From the NCBI RefSeq assembly GCF_054482595.1, contig NZ_CM137008.1: a stretch of DNA of 64,000 bases; one strand, 5' to 3'. Under the pieces are notes generated by a model that did no database searches, was not told the origin of the DNA, and saw nothing but the letters and a program-made list of their open reading frames with translations. This document shows, piece after piece, positions 846 to 27,334 of the stretch (position 1 is the first letter of the stretch; every line of letters starts with the position of its first letter). The translations under genes were made by a program, and so were the position numbers.

Positions 846-2006
846 TTAAAAATCTGTTTTGACATTTTCGTTTAAATAATCATATATTTTTCGCTGACCC
901 ACAGTTGTTGATGTATACTCTGTATTTTTTGTAAACTCCTCAGGATTCACAGTTTTCAATGCAGAGCACAGCTTTTCAATATTTTCTTTGTTAATTTTAG
1001 GCATGTCCATCAATTTTTTACGTAGAAACTGAAATAATGCAGAAATACCGACAGATCTAACTAACACTGTGCCTTTCTCAATACATACATTAGCCCAAAA
1101 ATGATCTTTTATCGCTGAAAAATAAATTTTCAATATTTGCTCTATCGCCTTATCATTGCCTTTTATATAAAACCATCGCAATGGGCTTTTATCCTTGCTG
1201 TTTTTATTATCAAGCCTGCCCCTTCCTTTTTCTTTTTCATCCGAATCAATTGCATTGATGGTATATCTATCAGCACGAGGGTTTTTAGATATTAGTGATA
1301 ATACACCATCAATAAATACAGACGATGATATAGACCAGTCATTTTCAGTAATTTCATTCAATACTCTATTTTTTAATCGTCTGTAGAAAGGATATTCATC
1401 TGTTTTATTAAATTTCTCACTAAAATATACAGCAAGCAAATCAGGAGGCCAATACTCTCTGGATATATCATCAAGAGAGTATCCAAAGAGTCTATATGCT
1501 AAACTTTTAGGAACTTTTTGTTGGTTAAAATTAATTGTTGAAAATATAGTTGCTTGATTGGATGGTGGTAATGAGTTATAAATTGAACAAGGTAATTGAA
1601 TATCTTTATTCTTAGCATACTTAAATCCTAATAATCTGTGCTGTCCATCGATAATAGAACATAATCTTAGATTTATATTCGGTATTATTATCTTATATAA
1701 TCAATTCTCACTTTTTTTAAACTCCCATTTGTCATCTTCCTTTGCAGGTGTACCATCTTCATTATGATTGACAGAGAGTATGATTGAGTTTGGAAATGCA
1801 GCCTCATCGGAGTCTATGAATTTTGCTATGTCTAAGGCTCTTGGCATAGACTCTTTCCTCTGCACACCTGATATTTCCCCATCATCCATTTCCGCCTGAT
1901 TCACATAAATACATTTCAATAAATCTTCGGCAGACATAACCGTCTGAAAGAATTCGCCGTATGGTTGGGTGACCTTAATTGCATGGATCTCAATAGAATT
2001 AGACAT
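846..2006 (-). pseudogene. DndB-like DGQHR-domain protein interrupted by an in-frame TGA (codon 102, plus-strand 1701-1703); possibly pseudogene, readthrough gene or sequencing error
   Basis: Minus-strand frame is continuous from ATG at 2006 to stop at 846-848 except for one TGA; N-terminal part has DndB-like AIKVTQPYGEFFQTVM and GVQR motifs, and the region just after the stop reads CSIIDGQHRLLGF (DGQHR signature). Very AT-rich. Confidence 0.65.
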
Positions 2007-2562: not shown

Positions 2563-5500
2563 TCAAAAAACAAGCTCCCAAAACGCTCTATCTCGCATCT
2601 TGCTAACCCGCTTATCCCCATCAACATACAGACTGAAATGTTTTTCAAGCTGCCGAATCTGCCCCATTAACGACTCCTGTTCGCCCTTATCATCCACGTT
2701 GAATACAGCCTTGATATCCGCATTTTTAATTTCGGACACACGATGAATAACCCAGGTTAGAATATATGAAGCGTAATTGTTCTCTCCAGTTTTGAAGTGG
2801 GTAATTTCCTGCGTTGACAGGATCGCTCCAACACCATATTCACGACCTTCCTTAAGGATCTTCCTCAGACTGGAAAAGTCCTGGCGCATAAAGTTATCTG
2901 CCTCATCCACCAGAATCATCTTGGTGAGCTGACGATAATCCCCCTGAATCACTGGCTTGCCGCGTTTTTGCATTTGTGCATAAAACAGATCCAGGGTTAG
3001 CGCAACCACCAGGTTTTGAATCTCTGATGAGTAGCCAGCCAATTCGATAACTGTGACACCATCCACCAGATCATACAGACTCGTCATTTTCTCTGGGTCT
3101 GTTTCAAATATCTGAAACCCAGCTAAGTTATAAAGCGCGGCGTACAATGAGTCTTCTTCTACTTTTTCCTGAGCCAGATATCGCTGCCACACATCTTCTA
3201 TGGTCGGTGCAACACGGTTCCAGGTTGAGCGATCATGAGGCACTATTCCTGCTAATTCATAGCACTCCATGATTAGCGTAACCAGTTTCATACGCTGTTT
3301 CACACCCAGGTTATAGGCTTTCCCCATTGTTTCAGAAAATGCGATTGCGGTATGTCTGGGTAACATGGGCATATCACCAAACAGTGACAAAGGGTTATAA
3401 GGTAGTAACGATAATTGATATTTCTTACCGCCAGTAGCCTTCAGAAAAGCCTCGTCCACATAGTCAGATTTATAATCAAAGATCAGTAAACCAATCGATT
3501 TTCCATCAACGTTACAGGATTGGTTACGCATTAATTGTGTCACCAGCGATTTGGTAAATTGCGTTTTCCCGGTCCCCATCGTACCGATGATGCCTGTGTT
3601 GGTATTCATAAACTTCGTGGTGTTGGTCGGTTCCCAGAATAACGGGGTTTGCCGTGTAGCGTCATGACCAAATAATACTTGTAAGGGTACAGTGCTGACC
3701 TCTGGTGTCGGCTTTGGAATATCAGGTCGTGTGTCTGGCGGTGTCGTTACCTGCACTCCCGATGCTGATGGAGATGGGTGCTCATCACTCTCTGGCTTCA
3801 GACGGTATTTATCTGGTACCCGGTAGCGTTCAGCCAATGGCAATTTACCTTCACGGGTAGTGATTAACGAGGATAGTAATGAATAAGGAATTTCGATCTG
3901 TAAGATATTCGCTGTCGTCTCTTTATAGGAGAGATCGAAGCAAGATCCGCTGTCTACATGTGCAACAACAAAGCCATTAGCATAGTCTTTTAACTCACCC
4001 AACTGATAGTCACCGGTCAACCACCATTCGCGGCGATCCAACAGGGGAGCCAGCTTATCACTGTCCAGCACACCGTACAGCTGAAGTTTCTCTACCTGCA
4101 TCAGCACCTGTCGAATAAAGAGCGCGCGATAAAGTTGCGATGCCAGTGTATGCGGCTCCAGAATATCCTGCTGTAAATAACGTTTAAGCTCAGCAGCCTG
4201 CTGGCCCGCATAGTTGTAATCTGGTCGAGCGCCGGTTTTGACTTCCAGCGGCAGTAAATAGAGACGGTTTTCTTTAAAACCAACAAAGAGCACATCATCA
4301 GAGATTGCGCCTTTACGGTACCCCTGTAGATTTCTTGATAAATCGCTTTCCTTCATCTTTAGCCCGACGTTACCAGATACGCGAATCATTTCGGCTACAG
4401 ATAGCGGTACCCAGCAGATATCAGACTCACTCAGCATGGACTGTACAAATTTATACGCGCCAATGATGCCATATTTCTCTTTGCGCTCTTTTTCACTGGA
4501 GCGCAACATCTTCAGCAACCACTCACCGTTAAAAGCATTAAATTCGGCAAGTAGATGCTGGCTATCAACGGCAGATTGCCCGGACTGGCTTTCGGTCTGG
4601 AGCAGGCGGAGGAATAGATCGACCTGCTTCGTTACCGTCACTGCATCGTAGCCTGCACAACTAGTGTACTGATCGGAATAGTGGATCAGCACAACATCTT
4701 TCTGGCTAGTAAAGAAGTCAAGAGTAACTTTAGGGTCAATAATGGTGGTCCAGAGTGCACTGTTGTAAGAATAATTGAGTAGCTGTTTAAAATTGCCGCT
4801 TACGGCCAATCCAATCCCTTGTCCGTGGTATTGACTGTTGCTCTGACGCGCTGGCTGCCACAGGCAGCCCACTAACCGGGCAAGTCGTAGAGCGCAGTAA
4901 GATTCAGTATCAACATTCCGCAGGCCAAACGCGGTAAAGTAAGCATCCCCCTGTGTTTCAGCTCCTTCTCCGGAAATCAGCCCATGACACAGTACACCGC
5001 TGGCAGCATCCTCAATGCGGATCTGGCGGCAATCCACCGGAGCTGTATTGGTGAAAAACGCCAAATGTGCATAGGCCAATTTGTCGCTTTCTGACGGCAG
5101 GACAAATTTGCTGAACGTTAACCGACTGCGTAACAGGTCAATCAGCATATCGGCCTCAGCTCGCCACGCACCGCGGTTCAGGTCAAGGTCGTTTTTAAGC
5201 TGTTCATAGCTGCCACTCTCGGCAAAGCGATCAAACATATTTGGCAGCAGGCGTTCATCGTAGCAATTTACATGCACCGAAATAGCATGCTCTTTTTCCT
5301 GCTTAAAATATTCCACTAACCCCAGAAACAGTTCTTTCGCTGTTCCCTGATTAATAGCATTAATAATCAATGCATTGTTTCCGGGACTCTGAAATAGCCG
5401 GGCGTAGGCTTCGGTAAATTCATTGAGCTTGTCTTTTACCAAACGTTTTACGTAATCGTGGCTCACCTGGCGCTGGGGAACGACATCGATCCAGAAGCGA

Positions 5501-10794: not shown

Positions 10795-10975
10795 TAAATA
10801 TTACCCCCGATTGATTTTCGCATAGTCAAACAGCGTAATCGATCTCTCCCTATTCGCATCCAGAAAATCAGCCCACCATACTGCAAATCAGCTCGCGCTC
10901 ATCCAGATGTTCTGCCTTATGGATATACGCCCCCTTACCGATGTGACTCATCTGACGTTCAGCCGCTTTATCTCA
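10795..10975 (-). pseudogene. Decayed 3' fragment of a P4-type integrase gene (remnant of a second int copy)
   Basis: About 180 bp with roughly 75-80 percent identity (by eye) to the 3' end of the intact integrase gene at about 13930-14110 (for example gcatccagaaaatc...ttatggatatacgc...ctcatctgacgttca shared); same orientation; 5' two-thirds of the gene absent. Confidence 0.6.
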
Positions 10976-13926: not shown

Positions 13927-15192
13927 TTACTGTTTTAATGGATTATTAATCTTTGCATATTCAAATGGACTGATAAATTTTTCTCTGTTTGCATCCAGAA
14001 AATCGGCCCACCATTGTAGCATCAAGCGGCGTTCTTCCAGATGCTCTGCTTTATGGATATACGCGGCCCTCACTGAATTTCGCTCCATGTGGCTCATCTG
14101 ACGTTCAACAGCATCACGAGACCACAAACCTGATTCGACCAATGAACTACAGGCCATTGTTCGAAAGCCATGACCACAAACCTCTACTTTTGTATCATAC
14201 CCCATGACCCGTAACGCACTATTTACCGTATTCTCACTCATGGGTTTGTGCGAATCGTGATCACCAATAAATATCAAGTCATGGGCCCCACAAAACTGTT
14301 TTATCTGCTTTAAAATTGCAAGAGCTTGCGTTGAAAGAGGCACTAGATGCGTTGTACGCATTTTTGAGCCTCTATGGGAATGTTTCACTCCAGGAATAGG
14401 CTCCCGCTCCGGTGGGATAGTCCATATAGACGCTTCGAAATCGATCTCTGACCAACGAGCAAAACGCAGCTCACTGGACCGAATAAAGATCAGCAAAGAG
14501 AGTTCTGTCGCCCATCGGGTTAGCGGCCTACCAGTATAGCTATCTATTTTTGTAAGCAACTCAGGGATGCGCTTTAATTCAAGCGCGGGACGATGTTGTC
14601 GATTACAGGAAGCAACCGCCCCAGCCATCTCTTGTGCCGGGTTATAATCAATTAACCCACTTTGCACTGCATAGCGCATGATGGCTGTAGTGCGCTGCTG
14701 AAGACGAGCGGCCACTTCAAGACGTCCAGACATTTCTACGGCCTTAATGGGTGCTAATAAATCTCGAGTTTTTAACTCAGCGATATTACGTTCACCAAGC
14801 GCTGCAAAAAGATTATCTTCCAGACTTTTTAGCACACGATGGGCGTGATCTTCAGACCACTTTTTATTGGTGCCATGCCACTCAATCGCGACTTCTTTAA
14901 AGGTTCGTGCTTTACTCTGTTCAACCTTATCATTTTTCTTTTTGTCTCCCGGATCGACGCCATTCGCAAGCAGCTTACGCGCCTCGTCACGACGTACTCT
15001 GGCATCCGCTAGTGTGATTTCAGGATAAACCCCAAGTGCCAGCATTTTTTGCTTTCCCTCATAACGGTACTGCAAACGCCAGTACTTAGAACCATTTGGA
15101 TGGACAAGCAGATGCATACCGCCACCATCAGTCAGCTTATATTGCTTATCCGTTGGCTTGGCTGCTCTGACTTTGATATCTGTTAATGCCAT
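13927..15192 (-). CDS. intB: P4-type tyrosine recombinase/integrase (IntB-like, 421 aa)
   Basis: Translation MALTDIKVRAAKPTDKQYKLTDGGGMHLLVHPNGSKYWRLQYRY... is a typical P4-family integrase N-terminus, with C-terminal catalytic region motifs (HGFR, Y near the C-terminus); start is adjacent to the 3' end of tRNA-Leu. Confidence 0.85.
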   Translation of the reverse strand: MALTDIKVRAAKPTDKQYKLTDGGGMHLLVHPNGSKYWRLQYRYEGKQKMLALGVYPEITLADARVRRDEARKLLANGVDPGDKKKNDKVEQSKARTFKEVAIEWHGTNKKWSEDHAHRVLKSLEDNLFAALGERNIAELKTRDLLAPIKAVEMSGRLEVAARLQQRTTAIMRYAVQSGLIDYNPAQEMAGAVASCNRQHRPALELKRIPELLTKIDSYTGRPLTRWATELSLLIFIRSSELRFARWSEIDFEASIWTIPPEREPIPGVKHSHRGSKMRTTHLVPLSTQALAILKQIKQFCGAHDLIFIGDHDSHKPMSENTVNSALRVMGYDTKVEVCGHGFRTMACSSLVESGLWSRDAVERQMSHMERNSVRAAYIHKAEHLEERRLMLQWWADFLDANREKFISPFEYAKINNPLKQ

Positions 15193-15378: not shown

Positions 15379-15463
15379 TGGTGCCGAAGGCCGGACTCGA
15401 ACCGGCACGTATTTCTACGGTTGATTTTGAATCAACTGCGTCTACCGATTTCGCCACTTCGGC
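15379..15463 (-). tRNA. leuX: tRNA-Leu (anticodon CAA), leuX
   Basis: Minus-strand 85-nt sequence GCCGAAGTGGCGAAATCGGTAGACGCAGTTGATTCAAAATCAACCGTAGAAATACGTGCCGGTTCGAGTCCGGCCTTCGGCACCA, recognised as leuX with encoded CCA; P4-type integrase immediately 3'. Confidence 0.9.
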
Positions 15464-15658
15464 ACTGAAGAGGTATGCGGAAAACGTTGTGGATTATACC
15501 TGTCGCACGCCACCATGCAAGCGCCAGCTTGCTCGCACCTCGCTAAGTGCTGAAATTTTCAGCATTGCATACAGCGATGTGTAACCTTTGTCACACTCCA
15601 GGCACCCCGCCCTGCCATGCTCTACACTTCCCAGACAACACCAGAGAAGGACCAAAAA

Positions 15659-16678
15659 ATGTCGATGATAAAAAGCTATGCCGCAAAAGAAGCAGGCGGC
15701 GAATTGGAAGTTTATGAGTACGATCCCGGTGAACTGAAGCCATAAGATGTTGAAGTGCAGGTGGATTACTGCGGGATCTGCCATTCCGATCTGTCGATGA
15801 TCGATAACGAATGGGGATTTTCACAATATCCGCTGGTTGCCGGGCATGAGGTGATTGGGCGCGTGGTGGCACTCGGGAGCGCCGCGCAGGATAAAGGTTT
15901 GCAGGTCGGTCAGCGTGTCGGGATTGGCTGGACGGCGCGTAGCTGTGGTCACTGCGACGCCTGTATTAGCGGTAATCAGATCAACTGCGAGCAAGGTGCG
16001 GTGCCGACGATTATGAATCGCGGTGGCTTTGCCGAGAAGTTACGTGCGGACTGGCAATGGGTGATTCCACTGCCAGAAAATATTGATATCGAGTCCGCCG
16101 GGCCGCTGTTGTGCGGCGGTATCACGGTCTTTAAACCACTGTTGATGCACCATATCACTGCTACCAGCCGCGTTGGGGTAATTGGTATTGGCGGGCTGGG
16201 GCATATCGCTATAAAACTTCTGCACGCAATGGGATGCGAGGTGACGGCCTTTAGTTCTAATCCGGCGAAAGAGCAGGAAGTACTGGCGATGGGTGCCGAT
16301 AAAGTGGTGAATAGCCGCGATCCGCAGGCACTGAAAGCCCTGTCGGGGCAGTTTGATCTCATTATCAATACTGTGAACGTCAGCCTCGACTGGCAGCCTT
16401 ATTTTGAGGCGCTGACCTATGGCGGTAATTTCCATACAGTCGGTGCGGTTCTCACGCCGTTGCCGGTTCCGGCCTTTACGCTGATTGCGGGCGATCGCAG
16501 TGTCTCTGGCTCTGCTACCGGTACACCTTATGAGTTGCGTAAGCTGATGCGCTTTGCCGCCCGCAGCAAGGTTGCGCCGACTACCGAACTGTTCCCGATG
16601 TCGAAAATTAACGACGCCATCCAGCATGTGCGCGACGGTAAGGCGCGTTACCGCGTGGTTCTGAAAGCTGACTTCTGA
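15659..16678 (+). pseudogene. ahr: Zinc-dependent aldehyde reductase Ahr (YjgB) with in-frame TAA at codon 29 (15743-15745)
   Basis: ATG at 15659 gives [28 protein letters not shown] then TAA, then the frame continues [16 protein letters not shown]... through the full MDR-family alcohol dehydrogenase to 16678; the ORF track only picks up from GTG 15755. Confidence 0.65.
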
Positions 16679-16807
16679 TCTCTTTGCCGGGTGCCTGTCG
16701 CCCGGCACTTAAATCTCTTTGGAAGGCGTCTCGCAATCTGCTGAATTTAGCGGTGAAGAGTGCGCAGCCGTTGCCTATACTCCAGGCAGGAAACTGGAGG
16801 AAATCTC

Positions 16808-18310
16808 ATGAGCGAACCCCTGTTAATTGCCCGTACGCCGGACACAGAACTGTTTTTACTACCCGCTATGGCTAACCGTCACGGACTGATTACTGGCGCA
16901 ACGGGGACGGGTAAAACCGTTACGCTGCAAAAACTGGCAGAGTCATTGTCGGAAATCGGCGTGCCGGTGTTTATGGCTGATGTGAAAGGCGATCTGACCG
17001 GTATCGCGCAGGCAGGAACGGCGTCGGAAAAACTGCTCACAAGGCTTAAAAATATCGGCGTCAATGACTGGCAACCGCATGCCAATCCGGTGGTGGTGTG
17101 GGATATCTTTGGCGAGAAAGGCCATCCGGTGCGGGCGACGGTCTCGGATCTGGGGCCGCTGTTGCTGGCGCGGCTGTTGAATCTCAACGATGTGCAATCT
17201 GGCGTGCTGAATATCATTTTCCGCATTGCTGACGATCAGGGGCTGTTACTGCTCGACTTTAAAGATCTACGGGCAATTACCCAGTACATCGGCGATAACG
17301 CCAAATCTTTCCAGAATCAGTACGGTAATATCAGTAGCGCATCGGTTGGTGCCATCCAGCGCGGGCTGTTGTCGCTGGAACAGCAAGGCGCAGCACACTT
17401 CTTTGGTGAGCCGATGCTGGATATCAAAGACTGGATGCGCACCGATGCCAACGGTAAAGGCGTTATTAATATCCTCAGCGCCGAGAAGCTTTATCAGATG
17501 CCGAAACTGTACGCCGCCAGCCTGCTGTGGATGATTTCAGAGTTGTATGAACAATTGCCGGAAGCGGGCGATCTGGAGAAGCCAAAACTGGTGTTTTTCT
17601 TCGACGAAGCACATCTGCTGTTTAACGATGCACCGCAGGTACTGCTGGATAAGATTGAGCAGGTGATAAGGCTTATTCGCTCAAAAGGCGTGGGCGTCTG
17701 GTTCGTTTCGCAAAACCCGTCTGATATTCCAGATAATGTGCTCGGCCAGCTCGGTAATCGCGTTCAGCACGCTTTGCGGGCTTTTACGCCAAAAGATCAG
17801 AAAGCAGTGAAGGCAGCGGCGCAAACCATGCGGGCTAATCCGGCGTTTGATATCGAAAAGGCAATCCAGGAACTGGGGACGGGCGAAGCGTTGATCTCGT
17901 TTCTCGATGCAAAAGGAAGTCCTTCTGTGGTGGAACGGGCGATGGTGATTGCGCCTTGTTCGCGGATGGGACCGGTGACGGAAGATGAGCGCAATGGCTT
18001 GATTAATCACTCTCCGGTGTATGGCAAGTACGAGGATGACGTGGACCGGGAATCCGCCTATGAGATGTTGCAAAAAGGCTTTCAGGCCAGTACCGAGCAG
18101 CAAAATAATCCCCCCGCGAAAGGGAAAGAGGTAGCGGTAGATGACGGCATTCTTGGTGGATTGAAGGATATTTTGTTCGGCACTACCGGACCACGCGGCG
18201 GGAAGAAAGATGGTGTGGTGCAAACAATGGCCAAAAGCGCCGCTCGCCAAGTGACGAATCAGATTGTACGCGGGATGTTGGGGAGTTTGCTGGGGGGGAG
18301 AAGAAGGTAA
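16808..18310 (+). CDS. yjgR: P-loop NTPase YjgR (DUF853 family, 500 aa)
   Basis: Translation [37 protein letters not shown]... with Walker A; real start at internal ATG 16808. Confidence 0.85.
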
Positions 18311-18311
18311 G

Positions 18312-18362
18312 TCAGGCGAGATTTGTCTTTGCCTGATGCGACGCTGGCGCGTCTTATCATGC
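18312..18362. repeat. REP (repetitive extragenic palindromic) element
   Basis: gcctgatgcgacgctggcgcgtcttatcatgcc-type palindromic unit after yjgR. Confidence 0.5.
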
Positions 18363-18470
18363 CCACCCCACTGCAATATATTGAATTTTAATTATTTTTC
18401 AGGAATGAACGAAGCACACTTTGCTAACAATAATAAAGGGAGCTTTCGCTCCCTTTATTCGTTCATTTGG

Positions 18471-19553
18471 TTACGATTTTCTCATTAACAGCCACAGGCT
18501 GATTAAGAAGAAGCTGGCGCTTGGCAACAGTGCGCCAATGATCGGCGGGATGCCGTAAACCAACGTCAGCGGACCGAAGATCTGGTCCAGTACGTAGAAG
18601 ACAAAACCGAAGCTGATACCGGTGACCACACGCACGCCCATCGGTACGCTACGCAGTGGGCCAAAGATGAACGACAGCGCCATCAGCATCATCACCGCCA
18701 CGGATAGCGGCTGGAAGATTTTGCTCCACATGTTGAGCTGATAACGTCCGGCATCCTGACCGCTCGACTTCAGATACTTCACGTAGTTGTGCAAACCACT
18801 GATGGAGAGTGCATCCGGGTCCAGCGCCACCACGCCCAGTTTGTCCGGTGTGAGGTTGGTTTTCCAGGTGCCGCTCACCGTCTGCGAACCGGTAATCTGT
18901 TTCGGATTGGTCAGATCAGATTCATCAACCTGCGACAGACGCCAGACTTTATGTTCCGGGTCAAACTTCGCAGTAGCGGCATAGCGTACGGATTGCAGAC
19001 GACGATTCTCGTTAAAGGCATAAATGCTGATGCCACCTAACTCTTCGTCACCTTTAACCCGCTCAATGTAGACGAAGTTGTTGCCATCTTTCGCCCATAA
19101 GCCTTGCTGGGTAGAGAGCAACGAGCCGCCGTACATCGCCTGCGCACGGTAGTTACGCGCCATCTGTTCGCCCTGCGGCGCAACCCATTCGCCAATCGCC
19201 ATCGTCAGCAAGACCAGCGGAATGGCGGTTTTCATCACCGACAGCGCCACCTGCATACGGGTAAAACCAGAAGCCTGCATCACCACCAGTTCGCTGCGCT
19301 GCGCCAGCATCCCAAGACCAAGCAACGCCCCAAGCAGAGCCGCCATCGGGAAGAATATTTGCACATCTTTCGGCACGCTCAGCAAGGTATACATTCCTGC
19401 GCCTAACGCGTCGTAACTCCCCTGCCCGGCTTTTTTCAACTGATCGACAAACTTGATAATGCCCGACAGCGACACCAGCATGAACAGCGTCATCATGATG
19501 GTTGTGAAAATAGTTTTACCGATATAGCGGTCAAGTACGCCAAAAGGTTGCAT
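18471..19553 (-). CDS. lptG: LPS export ABC permease LptG
   Basis: Translation MQPFGVLDRYIGKTIF... recognised as LptG (360 aa); overlaps lptF stop. Confidence 0.9.
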   Translation of the reverse strand: MQPFGVLDRYIGKTIFTTIMMTLFMLVSLSGIIKFVDQLKKAGQGSYDALGAGMYTLLSVPKDVQIFFPMAALLGALLGLGMLAQRSELVVMQASGFTRMQVALSVMKTAIPLVLLTMAIGEWVAPQGEQMARNYRAQAMYGGSLLSTQQGLWAKDGNNFVYIERVKGDEELGGISIYAFNENRRLQSVRYAATAKFDPEHKVWRLSQVDESDLTNPKQITGSQTVSGTWKTNLTPDKLGVVALDPDALSISGLHNYVKYLKSSGQDAGRYQLNMWSKIFQPLSVAVMMLMALSFIFGPLRSVPMGVRVVTGISFGFVFYVLDQIFGPLTLVYGIPPIIGALLPSASFFLISLWLLMRKS

Positions 19554-20653
19554 CACACCGCTCCTTTACGCGAAAAACTGGCGCGCAGGCGGCGGACCGG
19601 CACGGTGTCCCAAAGGTTGAGAACAATCGCCAAAGCCAGATAAATCAGGTTAACGGTCCACATCCACAGCGTCGGGTCCAGCTTACCTTTACCGCCGTTC
19701 GATTTCAGGGAGGTCTGGATCAGGAAGAAAAGTAGATACAGCAGCATGGCTGGCAGCATCGACAGTACGCGTCCCTGACGTGGGTTAACCACGCTCAGCG
19801 GTACGACCATAAGTGCCATCATAAACACGGTGAATACCAACGTGATACGCCAGTTCAGTTCTGCGCGAGCACGATCGGTGTCAGTGTTCCACAATGTGCG
19901 CATGTCCATCTGGTCGGTATCGTTCGGGTCGAGCGCCACCGCCTGGTGACCAATGATCGCCTGATAATCCTGGAAGTCCGTAATGCGGAAATCACGTAAC
20001 AATGCAGTGCCTTCGAAGCGCGTTCCCTGGTTGAGAGTGACGACCTGGGAGCCGTCGCGCAGCTGGGTTAAATGTCCGGAATCGGCCACCACCACAGAAG
20101 GACGTGCATTACCTTTTGGTCGAATTTGTGCGAGGAACACATCTTTGAAATCGCTGCCGTCAACGCTTTCGATGAACAGCACCGAGCTGCCATTAGTCGC
20201 TTGCTGGAATTGCCCTTGCGCCAGCGCCGCCATGCCAGGGTTCGCTTTCGCTTCTGCTAACACTTCATCCTGATGACGCGATGACCACGGTCCCGCCCAC
20301 ATCACGTTAACCGCCGCGACGATTGCCGTGAATACCGCAAGGATCATTGCCGCTTTCACCAGAACCGCTTTGCTCAGGCCGCAGGCATGCATTACCGTAA
20401 TTTCACTTTCGGTATACAGTTTGCCCAGCGTCATCAGCAGCCCGAGGAACAGGCTTAATGGCAGGATAAGCTGCGCCATTTCCGGCACGCCCAACCCGAG
20501 AAGGGAGAGCACCAGATTCGCCGGAATATCGCCGTCAACCGCTGCGCCGAGGATCCTCACTAACTTTTGACAGAAGAAGATCAAAAGCAAGATGAAGAGT
20601 ATCGCCAGCTGGCTTTTGAGCGTCTCCCGCACCAGATATCTTATGATTATCAC
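19553..20653 (-). CDS. lptF: LPS export ABC permease LptF
   Basis: Translation MIIIRYLVRETLKSQLAILFILLLIFF... recognised as LptF (366 aa). Confidence 0.9.
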   Translation of the reverse strand: MIIIRYLVRETLKSQLAILFILLLIFFCQKLVRILGAAVDGDIPANLVLSLLGLGVPEMAQLILPLSLFLGLLMTLGKLYTESEITVMHACGLSKAVLVKAAMILAVFTAIVAAVNVMWAGPWSSRHQDEVLAEAKANPGMAALAQGQFQQATNGSSVLFIESVDGSDFKDVFLAQIRPKGNARPSVVVADSGHLTQLRDGSQVVTLNQGTRFEGTALLRDFRITDFQDYQAIIGHQAVALDPNDTDQMDMRTLWNTDTDRARAELNWRITLVFTVFMMALMVVPLSVVNPRQGRVLSMLPAMLLYLLFFLIQTSLKSNGGKGKLDPTLWMWTVNLIYLALAIVLNLWDTVPVRRLRASFSRKGAV

Positions 20654-20916
20654 TTTAAATACGCCCGTAAAAACTCGTCTTTTGCAGGATTTTAGCTTGT
20701 TTCATGGCTTAAACGTCATTTATTCTCTTGAGTCGTCGAAATCGTCGCTAAGATAATTATACTCAACGGATTCACCTCTCAGATTTTGTTCTGACGTGCC
20801 AATGCCGTAATAACGTTAAGATTAACACGAAGTCATCGCAACAGCGGACATGAGTTACGAAAGCTTGCAATTCTATCTGTAGCCACCGCCGTTGTCTTTA
20901 AGATTCAGGAGCGTAG

Positions 20917-22431
<1,515 letters not shown>

Positions 22432-22439
22432 TTGCGTCA

Positions 22440-22735
<296 letters not shown>

Positions 22736-22783
22736 CGGTGTATACCTGATGCGTATTTAAATCCACCACAAGAAGCCCCATAT

Positions 22784-23227
22784 ATGAAAAACGCAACGTT
22801 CTACCTTCTGGACAATGACACCACCGTCGATGGCTTAAGCGCCGTTGAGCAGCTGGTGTGTGAAATTGCCGCAGAACGTTGGCGCAGCGGTAAGCGCGTG
22901 CTCATCGCCTGTGAAGATGAAAAGCAGGCTTACCGGCTGGATGAAGCCCTGTGGGCGCGTCCGGCAGAAAGCTTTGTTCCGCATAATTTAGCGGGAGAAG
23001 GACCGCGCGGCGGTGCGCCGGTGGAGATCGCCTGGCCGCAAAAGCGCAGCAGCAGCCCGCGCGATATATTGATTAGTCTGCGAACAAGCTTTGCAGATTT
23101 TGCCACCGCTTTCACAGAAGTGGTAGACTTCGTCCCTTATGAAGATTCTCTGAAACAACTGGCGCGCGAACGCTATAAAGCCTACCGCGTGGCTGGTTTC
23201 AACCTGAATACGGCAACCTGGAAATAA
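22784..23227 (+). CDS. holC: DNA polymerase III chi subunit HolC
   Basis: 147-aa translation [57 protein letters not shown]...; stop overlaps the valS start. Confidence 0.9.
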
Positions 23228-26082
23228 TGGAAAAGACATATAACCCACAAGATATCGAACAGCCGCTTTACGAGCACTGGGAAAAGCAGGGCTACTTTAA
23301 GCCTAATGGCGATGAAAGCCAGGAAAGTTTCTGCATCATGATCCCGCCGCCGAACGTCACCGGCAGTTTGCATATGGGTCACGCCTTCCAGCAAACCATC
23401 ATGGATACCATGATCCGCTATCAGCGCATGCAGGGCAAAAACACCCTGTGGCAGGTCGGTACTGACCACGCCGGGATCGCTACCCAGATGGTCGTTGAGC
23501 GCAAGATTGCCGCAGAAGAAGGTAAAACCCGTCACGACTACGGCCGCGAAGCTTTCATCGACAAAATTTGGGAATGGAAAGCGGAATCCGGCGGCACGAT
23601 TACCCGTCAGATGCGCCGTCTCGGCAACTCCGTCGACTGGGAGCGTGAACGCTTCACGATGGACGAAGGCCTGTCCAATGCGGTGAAAGAAGTTTTCGTT
23701 CGTCTGTATAAAGAAGACCTGATTTACCGTGGCAAACGCCTGGTAAACTGGGATCCGAAACTGCGCACCGCTATCTCTGACCTGGAAGTGGAAAACCGCG
23801 AATCGAAAGGTTCGATGTGGCACATCCGCTATCCGCTGGCTGACGGCGCGAAAACCGCAGACGGTAAAGATTATCTGGTGGTTGCGACTACCCGTCCGGA
23901 AACCCTGTTGGGCGATACCGGCGTGGCCGTTAACCCGGAAGATCCGCGTTACAAAGACCTGATTGGCAAATATGTCATTCTACCGCTGGTTAACCGTCGT
24001 ATTCCGATCGTTGGCGACGAACACGCCGACATGGAAAAAGGCACCGGCTGCGTGAAAATCACTCCGGCGCACGACTTTAACGACTATGAAGTGGGTAAAC
24101 GTCACGCGCTGCCGATGATCAACATCCTGACCTTTGACGGCGATATCCGTGAAAGCGCCCAGGTGTTCGATACCAAAGGTAACGAATCTGACGTTTATTC
24201 CAGCGAAATCCCGGCAGAATTCCAGAAACTGGAGCGTTTTGCTGCACGTAAAGCAGTCGTTGCTGCGGTTGACGCACTCGGCCTGCTGGAAGAAATTAAA
24301 CCGCACGACCTGACCGTTCCTTACGGCGACCGTGGCGGCGTAGTTATCGAACCAATGCTGACCGACCAGTGGTACGTGCGTGCCGATGTACTGGCGAAAC
24401 CGGCGGTTGAAGCGGTTGAGAACGGCGACATTCAGTTCGTACCGAAGCAGTACGAAAACATGTATTTCTCCTGGATGCGCGATATTCAGGACTGGTGTAT
24501 CTCTCGTCAGCTGTGGTGGGGTCACCGTATCCCGGCATGGTATGACGAAGCGGGTAATGTTTATGTTGGCCGCAACGAAGAAGAAGTGCGCAAGGAAAAT
24601 AACCTCGGTGCCGACGTTGCCCTGCGTCAGGACGAAGACGTTCTCGACACCTGGTTCTCTTCTGCGCTGTGGACCTTCTCTACCCTTGGCTGGCCGGAAA
24701 ACACCGACGCCCTGCGTCAGTTCCACCCAACCAGCGTGATGGTATCCGGCTTCGACATCATCTTCTTCTGGATTGCCCGCATGATCATGATGACCATGCA
24801 CTTCATCAAAGATGAAAATGGCAAACCGCAGGTGCCGTTCCACACTGTTTACATGACAGGTCTGATTCGTGACGACGAAGGCCAGAAGATGTCCAAATCC
24901 AAGGGTAACGTTATCGACCCGCTGGATATGGTTGACGGTATTTCGCTGCCAGAACTGCTGGAAAAACGTACCGGCAATATGATGCAGCCGCAGCTGGCGG
25001 ACAAAATCCGTAAGCGCACCGAGAAGCAGTTCCCGAACGGTATTGAGCCGCACGGTACTGACGCGCTGCGCTTCACCCTGGCGGCGCTGGCGTCTACCGG
25101 TCGTGACATCAACTGGGATATGAAGCGTCTGGAAGGCTACCGTAACTTCTGTAACAAGCTGTGGAACGCCAGCCGCTTTGTGCTGATGAACACGGAAGGT
25201 CAGGATTGCGGCTTCAACGGCGGTGAAATGACGCTGTCGCTGGCGGACCGCTGGATTCTGGCGGAGTTCAACCAGACCATCAAAGCGTACCGCGAAGCGC
25301 TGGACAGCTTCCGCTTCGATATCGCCGCTGGCATTCTGTATGAATTCACCTGGAACCAGTTCTGTGACTGGTATCTGGAGCTGACCAAGCCGGTAATGAA
25401 CGGTGGCACCGAAGCCGAACTGCGTGGTACTCGCCATACGCTGGTGACTGTACTGGAAGGTCTGCTGCGCCTCGCGCATCCGATCATTCCGTTCATCACC
25501 GAAACCATCTGGCAGCGTGTGAAGGTACTTTGCGGTATCACCGCCGACACCATCATGCTGCAGCCGTTCCCGCAGTATGATGCGTCTCAGGTTGATGAAG
25601 CGGCGCTGGCCGACACCGAGTGGCTGAAACAGGCGATCGTTGCCGTACGTAACATCCGTGCAGAAATGAATATCGCGCCGGGCAAACCGCTGGAGCTGCT
25701 GCTGCGTGGTTGCAGCGCGGATGCAGAACGTCGCGTAAATGAAAACCGTGGCTTCCTGCAAACCCTGGCGCGTCTGGAAAGCATCACCGTGCTGCCTGCC
25801 GATGACAAAGGTCCGGTTTCCGTTACGAAGATCATCGACGGCGCAGAGCTGCTGATCCCGATGGCTGGCCTCATCAACAAAGAAGATGAGCTGGCGCGTC
25901 TGGCGAAAGAAGTGGCGAAGATCGAAGGCGAAATCAGCCGTATCGAGAACAAGCTGGCGAATGAAGGCTTTGTCGCCCGCGCACCGGAAGCGGTCATCGC
26001 GAAAGAGCGTGAGAAGCTGGAAGGCTATGCAGAAGCGAAAGCTAAGCTGATTGAACAGCAGGCTGTTATCGCCGCGCTGTAA
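23227..26082 (+). CDS. valS: Valine--tRNA ligase ValS
   Basis: 951-aa translation with class I HIGH ([15 protein letters not shown]) and KMSKS motifs and a C-terminal coiled coil. Confidence 0.95.
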
Positions 26083-26106
26083 TCAAAACACAGTGATGAA
26101 AACGAA

Positions 26107-26132
26107 GGCCGGAGCATGCTCCGGCCTTTTTT
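26107..26132 (+). terminator. Rho-independent terminator downstream of valS
   Basis: Palindrome ggccggagcatgctccggcc followed by a T6 run. Confidence 0.6.
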
Positions 26133-26137
26133 ATCTC

Positions 26138-27334
26138 TTACAGAAATGGTAAAGAAGGCATGATTCCCCGTGAAATACTGGCTAAGAAGCCTTTATCTGG
26201 TTGTTCTTCTTTATTGATTAAAGGAAGGTCATCCAAATCGCCCAGCAAATACGTATTTTTTGCCTGCCAGTCAATCATCCATATTTTCAGCAGTGGATAA
26301 GCCAGACCGCCCGTAATCCCGGATATCACCACCAACGCACACATGCGATAAAGCATACCGTGGTATGTTAAAGTTGAGCGAAAACGAATACGCCCATCAT
26401 TCAGTGACAGGTTGCTCATAAAATGATTTCGCAACGACACCGTTAAATAACTGGTGCTAACAGCAATCCCAAAATAATAGATTAACTGCGCGATTATCAT
26501 TTTACGCTGCATTTCCATAAATTGCTGTAAATTCTCAATATCATCATTTGCATACACAGAACTATCATACGCATTTAATATTTGATCGAAGATAATATAA
26601 CCAGCAACAGCGAGAAAAGGTAATAAAGCTAAAAATGCGAGGATGGCATATTTTATACAATACGCAGTATCTAATTTCACCTTGAAACGATGTATACCGA
26701 AACTGGTATTGCTCCAGAGAAAACTCATTACCAGGCTATATAAAGTACCATTAAAAATACCAATGGAAACAATACCAACTATTGCCATCAGAACCACAGA
26801 TATAATAACACTACTTGAACTATTGGCATGTAGCATCTTTGTCGAGATAAAGAAAACAGTCCCCATCCCAATGGCCATTAAAATCGGCAAGAAAAAGGTT
26901 ACCCACCAGAACCCTTTCATAGAGCAATTAAAACTAAATCTTACGCCGTTGAGACTAGTCATCAAGGCCTGATAACGCAGTCCTTTTACTGCCATAAATA
27001 TAAGCAAAACCAACAGTGACAAAGTCAAAACACAGCCAACAAGCGGCATATCTGCTGACACTGTCATTAAGATTGCGAAATAGAAAAAAACAAAAACAAG
27101 ACAACTAAAAAAAACATTCCCACCAGTAATTCCATAAGAAAATCGTTGTCCGTTAACTTCCATATTAGCATAGAGATAACGCCTACATTTCATTAATGCC
27201 CATGGTAAATAGATACCTAGCGTTATAATCGTTAACAACACATTCACCACACAAATAAGAAAATATCTCTCACCTGTACCATGAAAAACAAACGAATGGG
27301 ACGGAACATCCATTTCATTAATAACTTGAGCCAT
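26138..27334 (-). CDS. yjgN: Inner membrane protein YjgN (DUF898)
   Basis: Polytopic membrane protein at the K-12 yjgN position; start probably at internal ATG (MAQVINEMDV...). Confidence 0.8.
   Translation of the reverse strand: MAQVINEMDVPSHSFVFHGTGERYFLICVVNVLLTIITLGIYLPWALMKCRRYLYANMEVNGQRFSYGITGGNVFFSCLVFVFFYFAILMTVSADMPLVGCVLTLSLLVLLIFMAVKGLRYQALMTSLNGVRFSFNCSMKGFWWVTFFLPILMAIGMGTVFFISTKMLHANSSSSVIISVVLMAIVGIVSIGIFNGTLYSLVMSFLWSNTSFGIHRFKVKLDTAYCIKYAILAFLALLPFLAVAGYIIFDQILNAYDSSVYANDDIENLQQFMEMQRKMIIAQLIYYFGIAVSTSYLTVSLRNHFMSNLSLNDGRIRFRSTLTYHGMLYRMCALVVISGITGGLAYPLLKIWMIDWQAKNTYLLGDLDDLPLINKEEQPDKGFLASISRGIMPSLPFL

Follow-up and report, generated by a model that had tools for sequence, protein, structure and literature searches.

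The 64,000-nucleotide stretch of Escherichia coli DNA analysed here (the window) carries an ahr (yjgB) gene whose reading frame is interrupted at codon 29 by a TAA stop codon. Judged from its sequence, the TAA allele is very probably a null allele. The best explanation is a recent, inherited nonsense mutation, a C to T transition at position 15743 that changed CAA to TAA at codon 29. Translation from the native ahr start is predicted to yield 28 residues and to stop short of all catalytic residues, and the strain would make essentially no active Ahr. The allele is best read as a clone-specific null and an incipient pseudogene of a redundant aldehyde reductase, and the loss is probably neutral or nearly so, given the overlapping aldehyde reductases of E. 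coli.

The interrupted ahr reading frame

The frame begins with an ATG at 15659-15661 on the plus strand, meets TAA at codon 29 (15743-15745, read directly in the sequence) and past this codon stays open until the normal stop, a TGA at 16676-16678. An earlier note on this DNA described 28 codons from the canonical ATG, then TAA, then the frame of the full enzyme, and the sequence reads exactly so. The features of the locus are as follows.

15659..16678, plus strand: ahr (yjgB), frame of an NADPH-dependent aldehyde reductase, interrupted at codon 29 (probable pseudogene or null allele); assigned by identity to annotated ahr, Pfam and PDB 7BU2
15646..15651, plus strand: Shine-Dalgarno sequence GAAGGA of the native ahr start, anti-SD duplex energy -5.4 kcal/mol
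15659..15742, plus strand: 28 codons still translatable from the native ahr start, by sequence reading
15743..15745, plus strand: premature TAA, Gln29 to stop, with a derived T at 15743, preceded by CCA (Pro) and followed by G
16689..16710, plus strand: terminator-like hairpin 3' of ahr and upstream of yjgR (start at 16808, taken from the SM107 annotation); from a consensus scan, which is not functional evidence

The hairpin suggests that ahr forms its own transcription unit. With G as the next base, UAA terminates efficiently, and proline at the C-terminal end promotes stalling and tagging by tmRNA.

In a megablast search of 5,426 complete E. coli genomes, ahr is near-universal, being present in about 5,263-5,274 of them. 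With positions 15560-16700 as the query, a perfect match is absent from these genomes. The 16 best matches, all with an annotated ahr, are one base off (99.9% identity, 1 mismatch in 1,141 bases), and this base is position 15743, T in the window and C in the matches. A single mismatch of this kind against annotated ahr indicates that the TAA is more than a chance break of an open reading frame. Orthology is given both by this near-identity and by position, since the order leuX-ahr-yjgR is kept, but the uninterrupted 339-codon frame of a functional Ahr is lacking. The locus is the ahr gene but would not be a functional member of the CAD-family zinc MDR enzymes.

The catalytic zinc ligands of Ahr are Cys41, His63, Glu64 and Cys152, and residues 1-164 belong to the substrate-binding domain (PMC7287880). 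All four ligands are encoded after the TAA, and none is in the 28-residue product, which has no Pfam match. The reconstructed protein matches Pfam ADH_N (GroES-like, residues 27-140) and ADH_zinc_N; domains and ligands are present in the conceptual translation, all downstream of the stop. It is 98.8% identical to the YjgB of PDB 7BU2, from which it differs at 4 of 339 residues (R28K, A229S, S268P and Y339F). The two share the locus leuX-ahr-yjgR, all zinc ligands and both Pfam domains as encoded in the window allele. In contrast to the 7BU2 protein, codon 29 in the window is TAA, not CAA, so that this allele cannot yield the full-length protein. Inactivation by nonsense at codon 29, one of the options raised in the earlier note, is the best supported of them: the ligands lie after the stop, and the possible restart codons have no Shine-Dalgarno sequence.

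Origin and distribution of the nonsense mutation

The stop stems from a single C to T transition at 15743, which turns CAA (Gln29) into TAA. C is found at this position in all five outgroups with the same island and also in XH990. Because the five more distant genomes with the same island all have C, the T is the derived state. Over 15560-16700, XH990, Santai and APEC37 differ from the window solely by T/C at 15743, and five further genomes differ from it only at this base over 15379-26678. In the backbone rightward from leuX, close relatives are otherwise identical for 11-48 kb. XH990 and the window have two differing sites in 48.6 kb of backbone, 15743 and 33298; the second is uninformative for the ordering of lineages, as only XH990 has the A found there.

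The T at 15743 is present in 10 of 10 independent public samples checked, which comprise six NCBI assemblies, two ENA metagenome assemblies and two SRA runs.

NCBI assemblies with T: GCA_016785725.1, GCA_017593805.1, GCA_009822715.1, GCA_965257005.1, GCA_040048275.1, GCA_021915125.1
ENA and SRA samples with T: ERZ15808064, ERZ2916219, SRR28282955, ERR1623392

A search of the complete RefSeq E. coli genomes with 30-mers spanning codon 29, made in both common local haplotypes, gives matches to the CAA form in 4,987 of 5,426 genomes (4,181 + 806) and to the TAA form in none. The TAA allele is confined to one E. coli clone. The stop codon thus combines a derived single-base change with reproducibility in independent sequencing, as a nonsense pseudogene does, and it is not conserved across lineages (0 of 5,426 complete genomes), as a recoding or restart site would be. 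In the public protein collection, the 293-amino-acid product that starts at Met47 (P0002) is found on at least 24 contigs in 45 index blocks, and the intact form of the exact protein in 1,052 blocks. Gene callers give a spurious 293-amino-acid "Ahr" from Met47, and the clone should be annotated as ahr-negative. The T at 15743 also provides a handy single-base marker of the clone.

The leuX island and its turnover

To the left of leuX lies a dnd/dptFGH island with a P4-type integrase.

15379..15463, minus strand: leuX, tRNA-Leu(CAA), attachment site of the island (ARAGORN; Rfam tRNA, 59.4 bits)
13927..15192, minus strand: P4-type tyrosine integrase at the leuX-proximal end of the dnd/dptFGH island (annotated in SM107 and 86-24; Pfam Arm-DNA-bind_3/Phage_integrase)

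SM107 and 86-24 carry an identical sequence at the integrase (13927-15192). Identity with genomes that have an SNF2 island places the start of the backbone common to the relatives at 15379, and the 195 bp gap between leuX and the ahr start is unchanged.

The TAA allele is found next to three types of island: the dnd/dpt island in the window and in loci L016, L018 and L020, an SNF2/methylase/ResIII island in L017, and, in L022, a third type that combines ept and OMP genes with an integrase and an IS element. Intact ahr of the same allele is likewise found next to the dnd island (SM107, with a D30N variant), the SNF2 island, pap-fimbrial islands and others. When L017 is compared with L024, a CAA genome with the same island, there is one difference in 20,882 bases, and this is 15743. 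The earlier note placed the stop codon next to the island junction; this is correct as geography, but insertion of the island is rejected as the cause, as TAA occurs by three island types and CAA by the same island.

One backbone haplotype is associated with at least five leuX islands: dnd/dpt, SNF2-methylase-ResIII, pap fimbriae, a type I R-M/IS variant and another integrase type (island types were read to the left of 15379 in L017, L022 and L024-L033). This indicates that turnover of the leuX island is very fast relative to point mutation. The presence of TAA on three island types and the one-base difference between L017 and L024 mean that a single origin of the mutation needs an exchange of islands between clone-mates; otherwise the mutation has recurred. 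Such an exchange is plausible, given the five or more island types on one identical backbone.

A degraded, IS-rich genome of the Shigella type was also considered and is partly addressed: there are no repeats of 200 bp or more in the window, and the window is E. coli DNA, four SNPs from strain SM107.

A fragment of an integrase gene at 10801-10966 on the minus strand is frameshifted and is annotated as a pseudogene in all relatives. It is situated between dptF and a module of OMP and phosphoethanolamine-transferase genes, and it suggests that the island could be a composite of two integrated elements.

Neutral or selected loss of ahr

The loss of ahr is probably neutral, since the aldehyde reductases of E. 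coli are numerous and overlapping. YjgB/Ahr belongs to a group of several NADPH-dependent aldehyde reductases with a broad range (PMC3684718), and yjgB was among nine aldehyde reductase genes removed together on the condition that growth should not be inhibited (PMC4818529). Five single-step missense revertants of TAA are possible, Q29K, Q29E, Q29L, Q29S and Q29Y, and none of these pseudo-revertants on the TAA allele is present among about 15 billion proteins. The sequences provide no evidence of selection to restore ahr.

The allele resembles ordinary nonsense pseudogenes of E. coli and Shigella in that there is one derived transition with no further decay in one clone, and in that redundant paralogues exist (yahK, yqhD and others; PMC3684718, PMC4818529). 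The only oddity by comparison is a second private substitution in the adjacent codon of a sister strain. A search of the literature for yjgB as a natural pseudogene gave nothing relevant. The case is another loss of a redundant aldehyde reductase, and it neither opens nor settles a major question.

It has to be asked whether inactivation of Ahr was selected in the clone and is adaptive, not a neutral decay. The spread of the allele (45 index blocks and at least 24 contigs, where the intact form has 1,052 blocks) might be taken in this sense, as might the second amino-acid change in the adjacent codon of the sister lineage. Clonal hitch-hiking, however, accounts for the spread equally well, and there is a single inactivating allele, with neither further stops nor frameshifts of separate origin. 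Residue 30 is not conserved (it is Gln in 6c49), and D30N is probably benign. An adaptive loss is thus unlikely.

The adjacent substitution in SM107

SM107 (NZ_CP130667.1) has the same island as the window, and over 64 kb the two sequences differ by four substitutions, all G:C to A:T.

9797 and 15743: derived in the window
10988 and 15746: derived in SM107

The G to A change at 15746 results in D30N, in the codon adjoining the stop. It is private to SM107 and is found as well in a second assembly, GCA_033341015.1. The probability that two of four SNPs fall within 3 bp of each other in 64 kb is about 7e-4. Simple neutral loss of ahr gives no explanation of this adjacency.

One reading is that, in this clone, codons 29 and 30 of ahr form a local hotspot of mutation or are under selection. 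The TAA would then be recurrent, or the CAA-AAT of SM107 would be a two-base reversion of TAA-GAT. The spacing of the private G to A change, three bases off in both assemblies, is consistent with this, as is the distribution over islands: TAA is present on dnd-island, SNF2-island and third-island backgrounds, and the intact allele is also found by the SNF2 island and, as the D30N form, by the dnd island. On the other hand, one origin followed by turnover is enough to produce this distribution, as leuX islands are highly exchangeable (at least five types on an identical backbone). A species-wide hotspot at codon 29 is rejected, with 0 TAA alongside 4,987 CAA genomes. Template switching at a quasi-palindrome is also rejected, as no quasi-palindrome or repeat partner was found, and so is Dcm deamination, the context being CCACA by direct reading and not CCWGG. 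There are no pseudo-revertants at codon 29. Lesion segregation from one burst of damage does not fit either, since within each lineage the four SNPs show no strand coordination. A hotspot or target of selection at these codons is improbable.

A more specific proposal ties both changes, Q29 to stop and D30N (G:C to A:T in adjacent codons), to phosphorothioation by the Dnd system of the two strains. The three SNP loci that separate these dnd-positive genomes (9797, 10988 and 15743/15746) are 5, 5 and 9 bp from GAAC/GTTC, which we take to be the motif modified by E. coli Dnd systems of the B7A type, as here. For 15743/15746 there is a GAAC at 15731-15734. For the SNP at 33298, private to the dnd-negative XH990, the distance to a site of this kind is 193 bp. 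The proximity has a post hoc p of about 0.004 and comprises three data points, so it is a lead only, and a hotspot of this origin is very unlikely. If it did exist, damage or repair near phosphorothioates would be locally mutagenic and repeated origins of the TAA would be conceivable. That two sister strains each have a private mutation in neighbouring codons, which is improbable, is the one point here that merits further attention.

Translation after the stop codon

A clone-specific null allele is the preferred reading also when translation restarts are taken into account. Three in-frame start codons, GTG, GTG and ATG, are located 9, 15 and 51 nt past the stop, and none has a Shine-Dalgarno sequence.

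15755..15757, plus strand: in-frame GTG (codon 33), candidate restart for a 307-amino-acid product, 9 nt past the stop; no Shine-Dalgarno sequence, -1.5 kcal/mol
15797..15799, plus strand: in-frame ATG (Met47), start used by gene callers for the 293-amino-acid product P0002; no Shine-Dalgarno sequence, +0.3 kcal/mol
15747..15800, plus strand: out-of-frame (+1) open reading frame of 17 codons, with an ATG one base past the stop and a TGA that overlaps the Met47 ATG (ATGA)

The remaining in-frame codon, the GTG at 15761 (codon 35), likewise has an anti-SD energy of -1.5 kcal/mol and no Shine-Dalgarno sequence. For comparison, the energy is -5.4 kcal/mol at the native ahr start and the median at random positions is -1.9 kcal/mol. 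Neither a ribosome-binding signal nor a known RNA element is found at GTG 15755, GTG 15761 or ATG 15797; an Rfam search at the site gives the tRNA only. The overlap of the 17-codon frame with the Met47 ATG has the layout of translational coupling, although it is probably due to chance.

The earlier note also offered a restart at GTG 15755, and this, or a restart at GTG 15761, would result in an N-terminally shortened but active enzyme of 305-307 amino acids. Such a restart is very unlikely. The GTG at 15755 is indeed in frame and its open reading frame reaches the normal end, and the product would keep all four zinc ligands (PMC7287880). However, the pairing energy is weaker than the random median and far from the native value, and residues 1-32 together with positions 1-7 of the Pfam ADH_N profile would be lost in the product that starts at Val33. 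All 44 of the 44 matched solved homologues align upstream of residue 33. The product that starts at Met47 additionally lacks the zinc ligand Cys41.

The ATG at 15747 is a better start codon than GTG 15755, is the one nearest the stop and would compete with it for reinitiating ribosomes. As it is out of frame and its TGA overlaps the Met47 ATG, a restarting ribosome would be likelier to make the 17-codon peptide or the Met47 product. The 307- and 305-amino-acid products have never been reported by gene callers, and the exact 307-amino-acid product is absent from 15 billion proteins on record. A low-level restart or readthrough product may nevertheless be formed from ahr.

Translational restart proteins after nonsense codons are known from lacI and T4 rIIB, and restarts independent of a Shine-Dalgarno sequence exist in E. 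coli. In-frame GTG and ATG codons downstream of the stop are what ahr shares with these systems. Unlike them, ahr has no Shine-Dalgarno sequence at these codons, has a competing out-of-frame ATG, and would have a conserved structural segment removed.

An intact ahr with a T at 15743 introduced by faulty sequencing or assembly, the last option in the earlier note, is effectively excluded: one base only is concerned and no complete RefSeq genome has T, but the same base is found in the 10 independently sequenced NCBI, ENA and SRA samples, across three island contexts, and the window is of high quality, with 0 indels and 4 substitutions relative to SM107 over 64 kb.

Other features of the window

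A DndB-like/DGQHR gene of 386 codons adjacent to dptH (846-2006, minus strand) is split by an in-frame TGA at 1701-1703 (…KKSEN, stop, LYKIII…DGQHR…). This TGA is identical in five of the five relatives compared, and in RefSeq the gene is represented by two CDS, the second with a non-canonical Ile-codon start.

To the right of ahr, the yjgR of APEC37 (L003/L033) is annotated as 559 and not 500 amino acids; with 3 bases inserted near 16777 and 1 base lost at 18292, the yjgR frame runs on into lptG. Farther along, the pepA-holC intergenic region at about 22530-22660 is otherwise invariant, but the alignment breaks there in L018 (GCA_040048275.1), in which holC begins 95 bp before the start that it has at the other loci.
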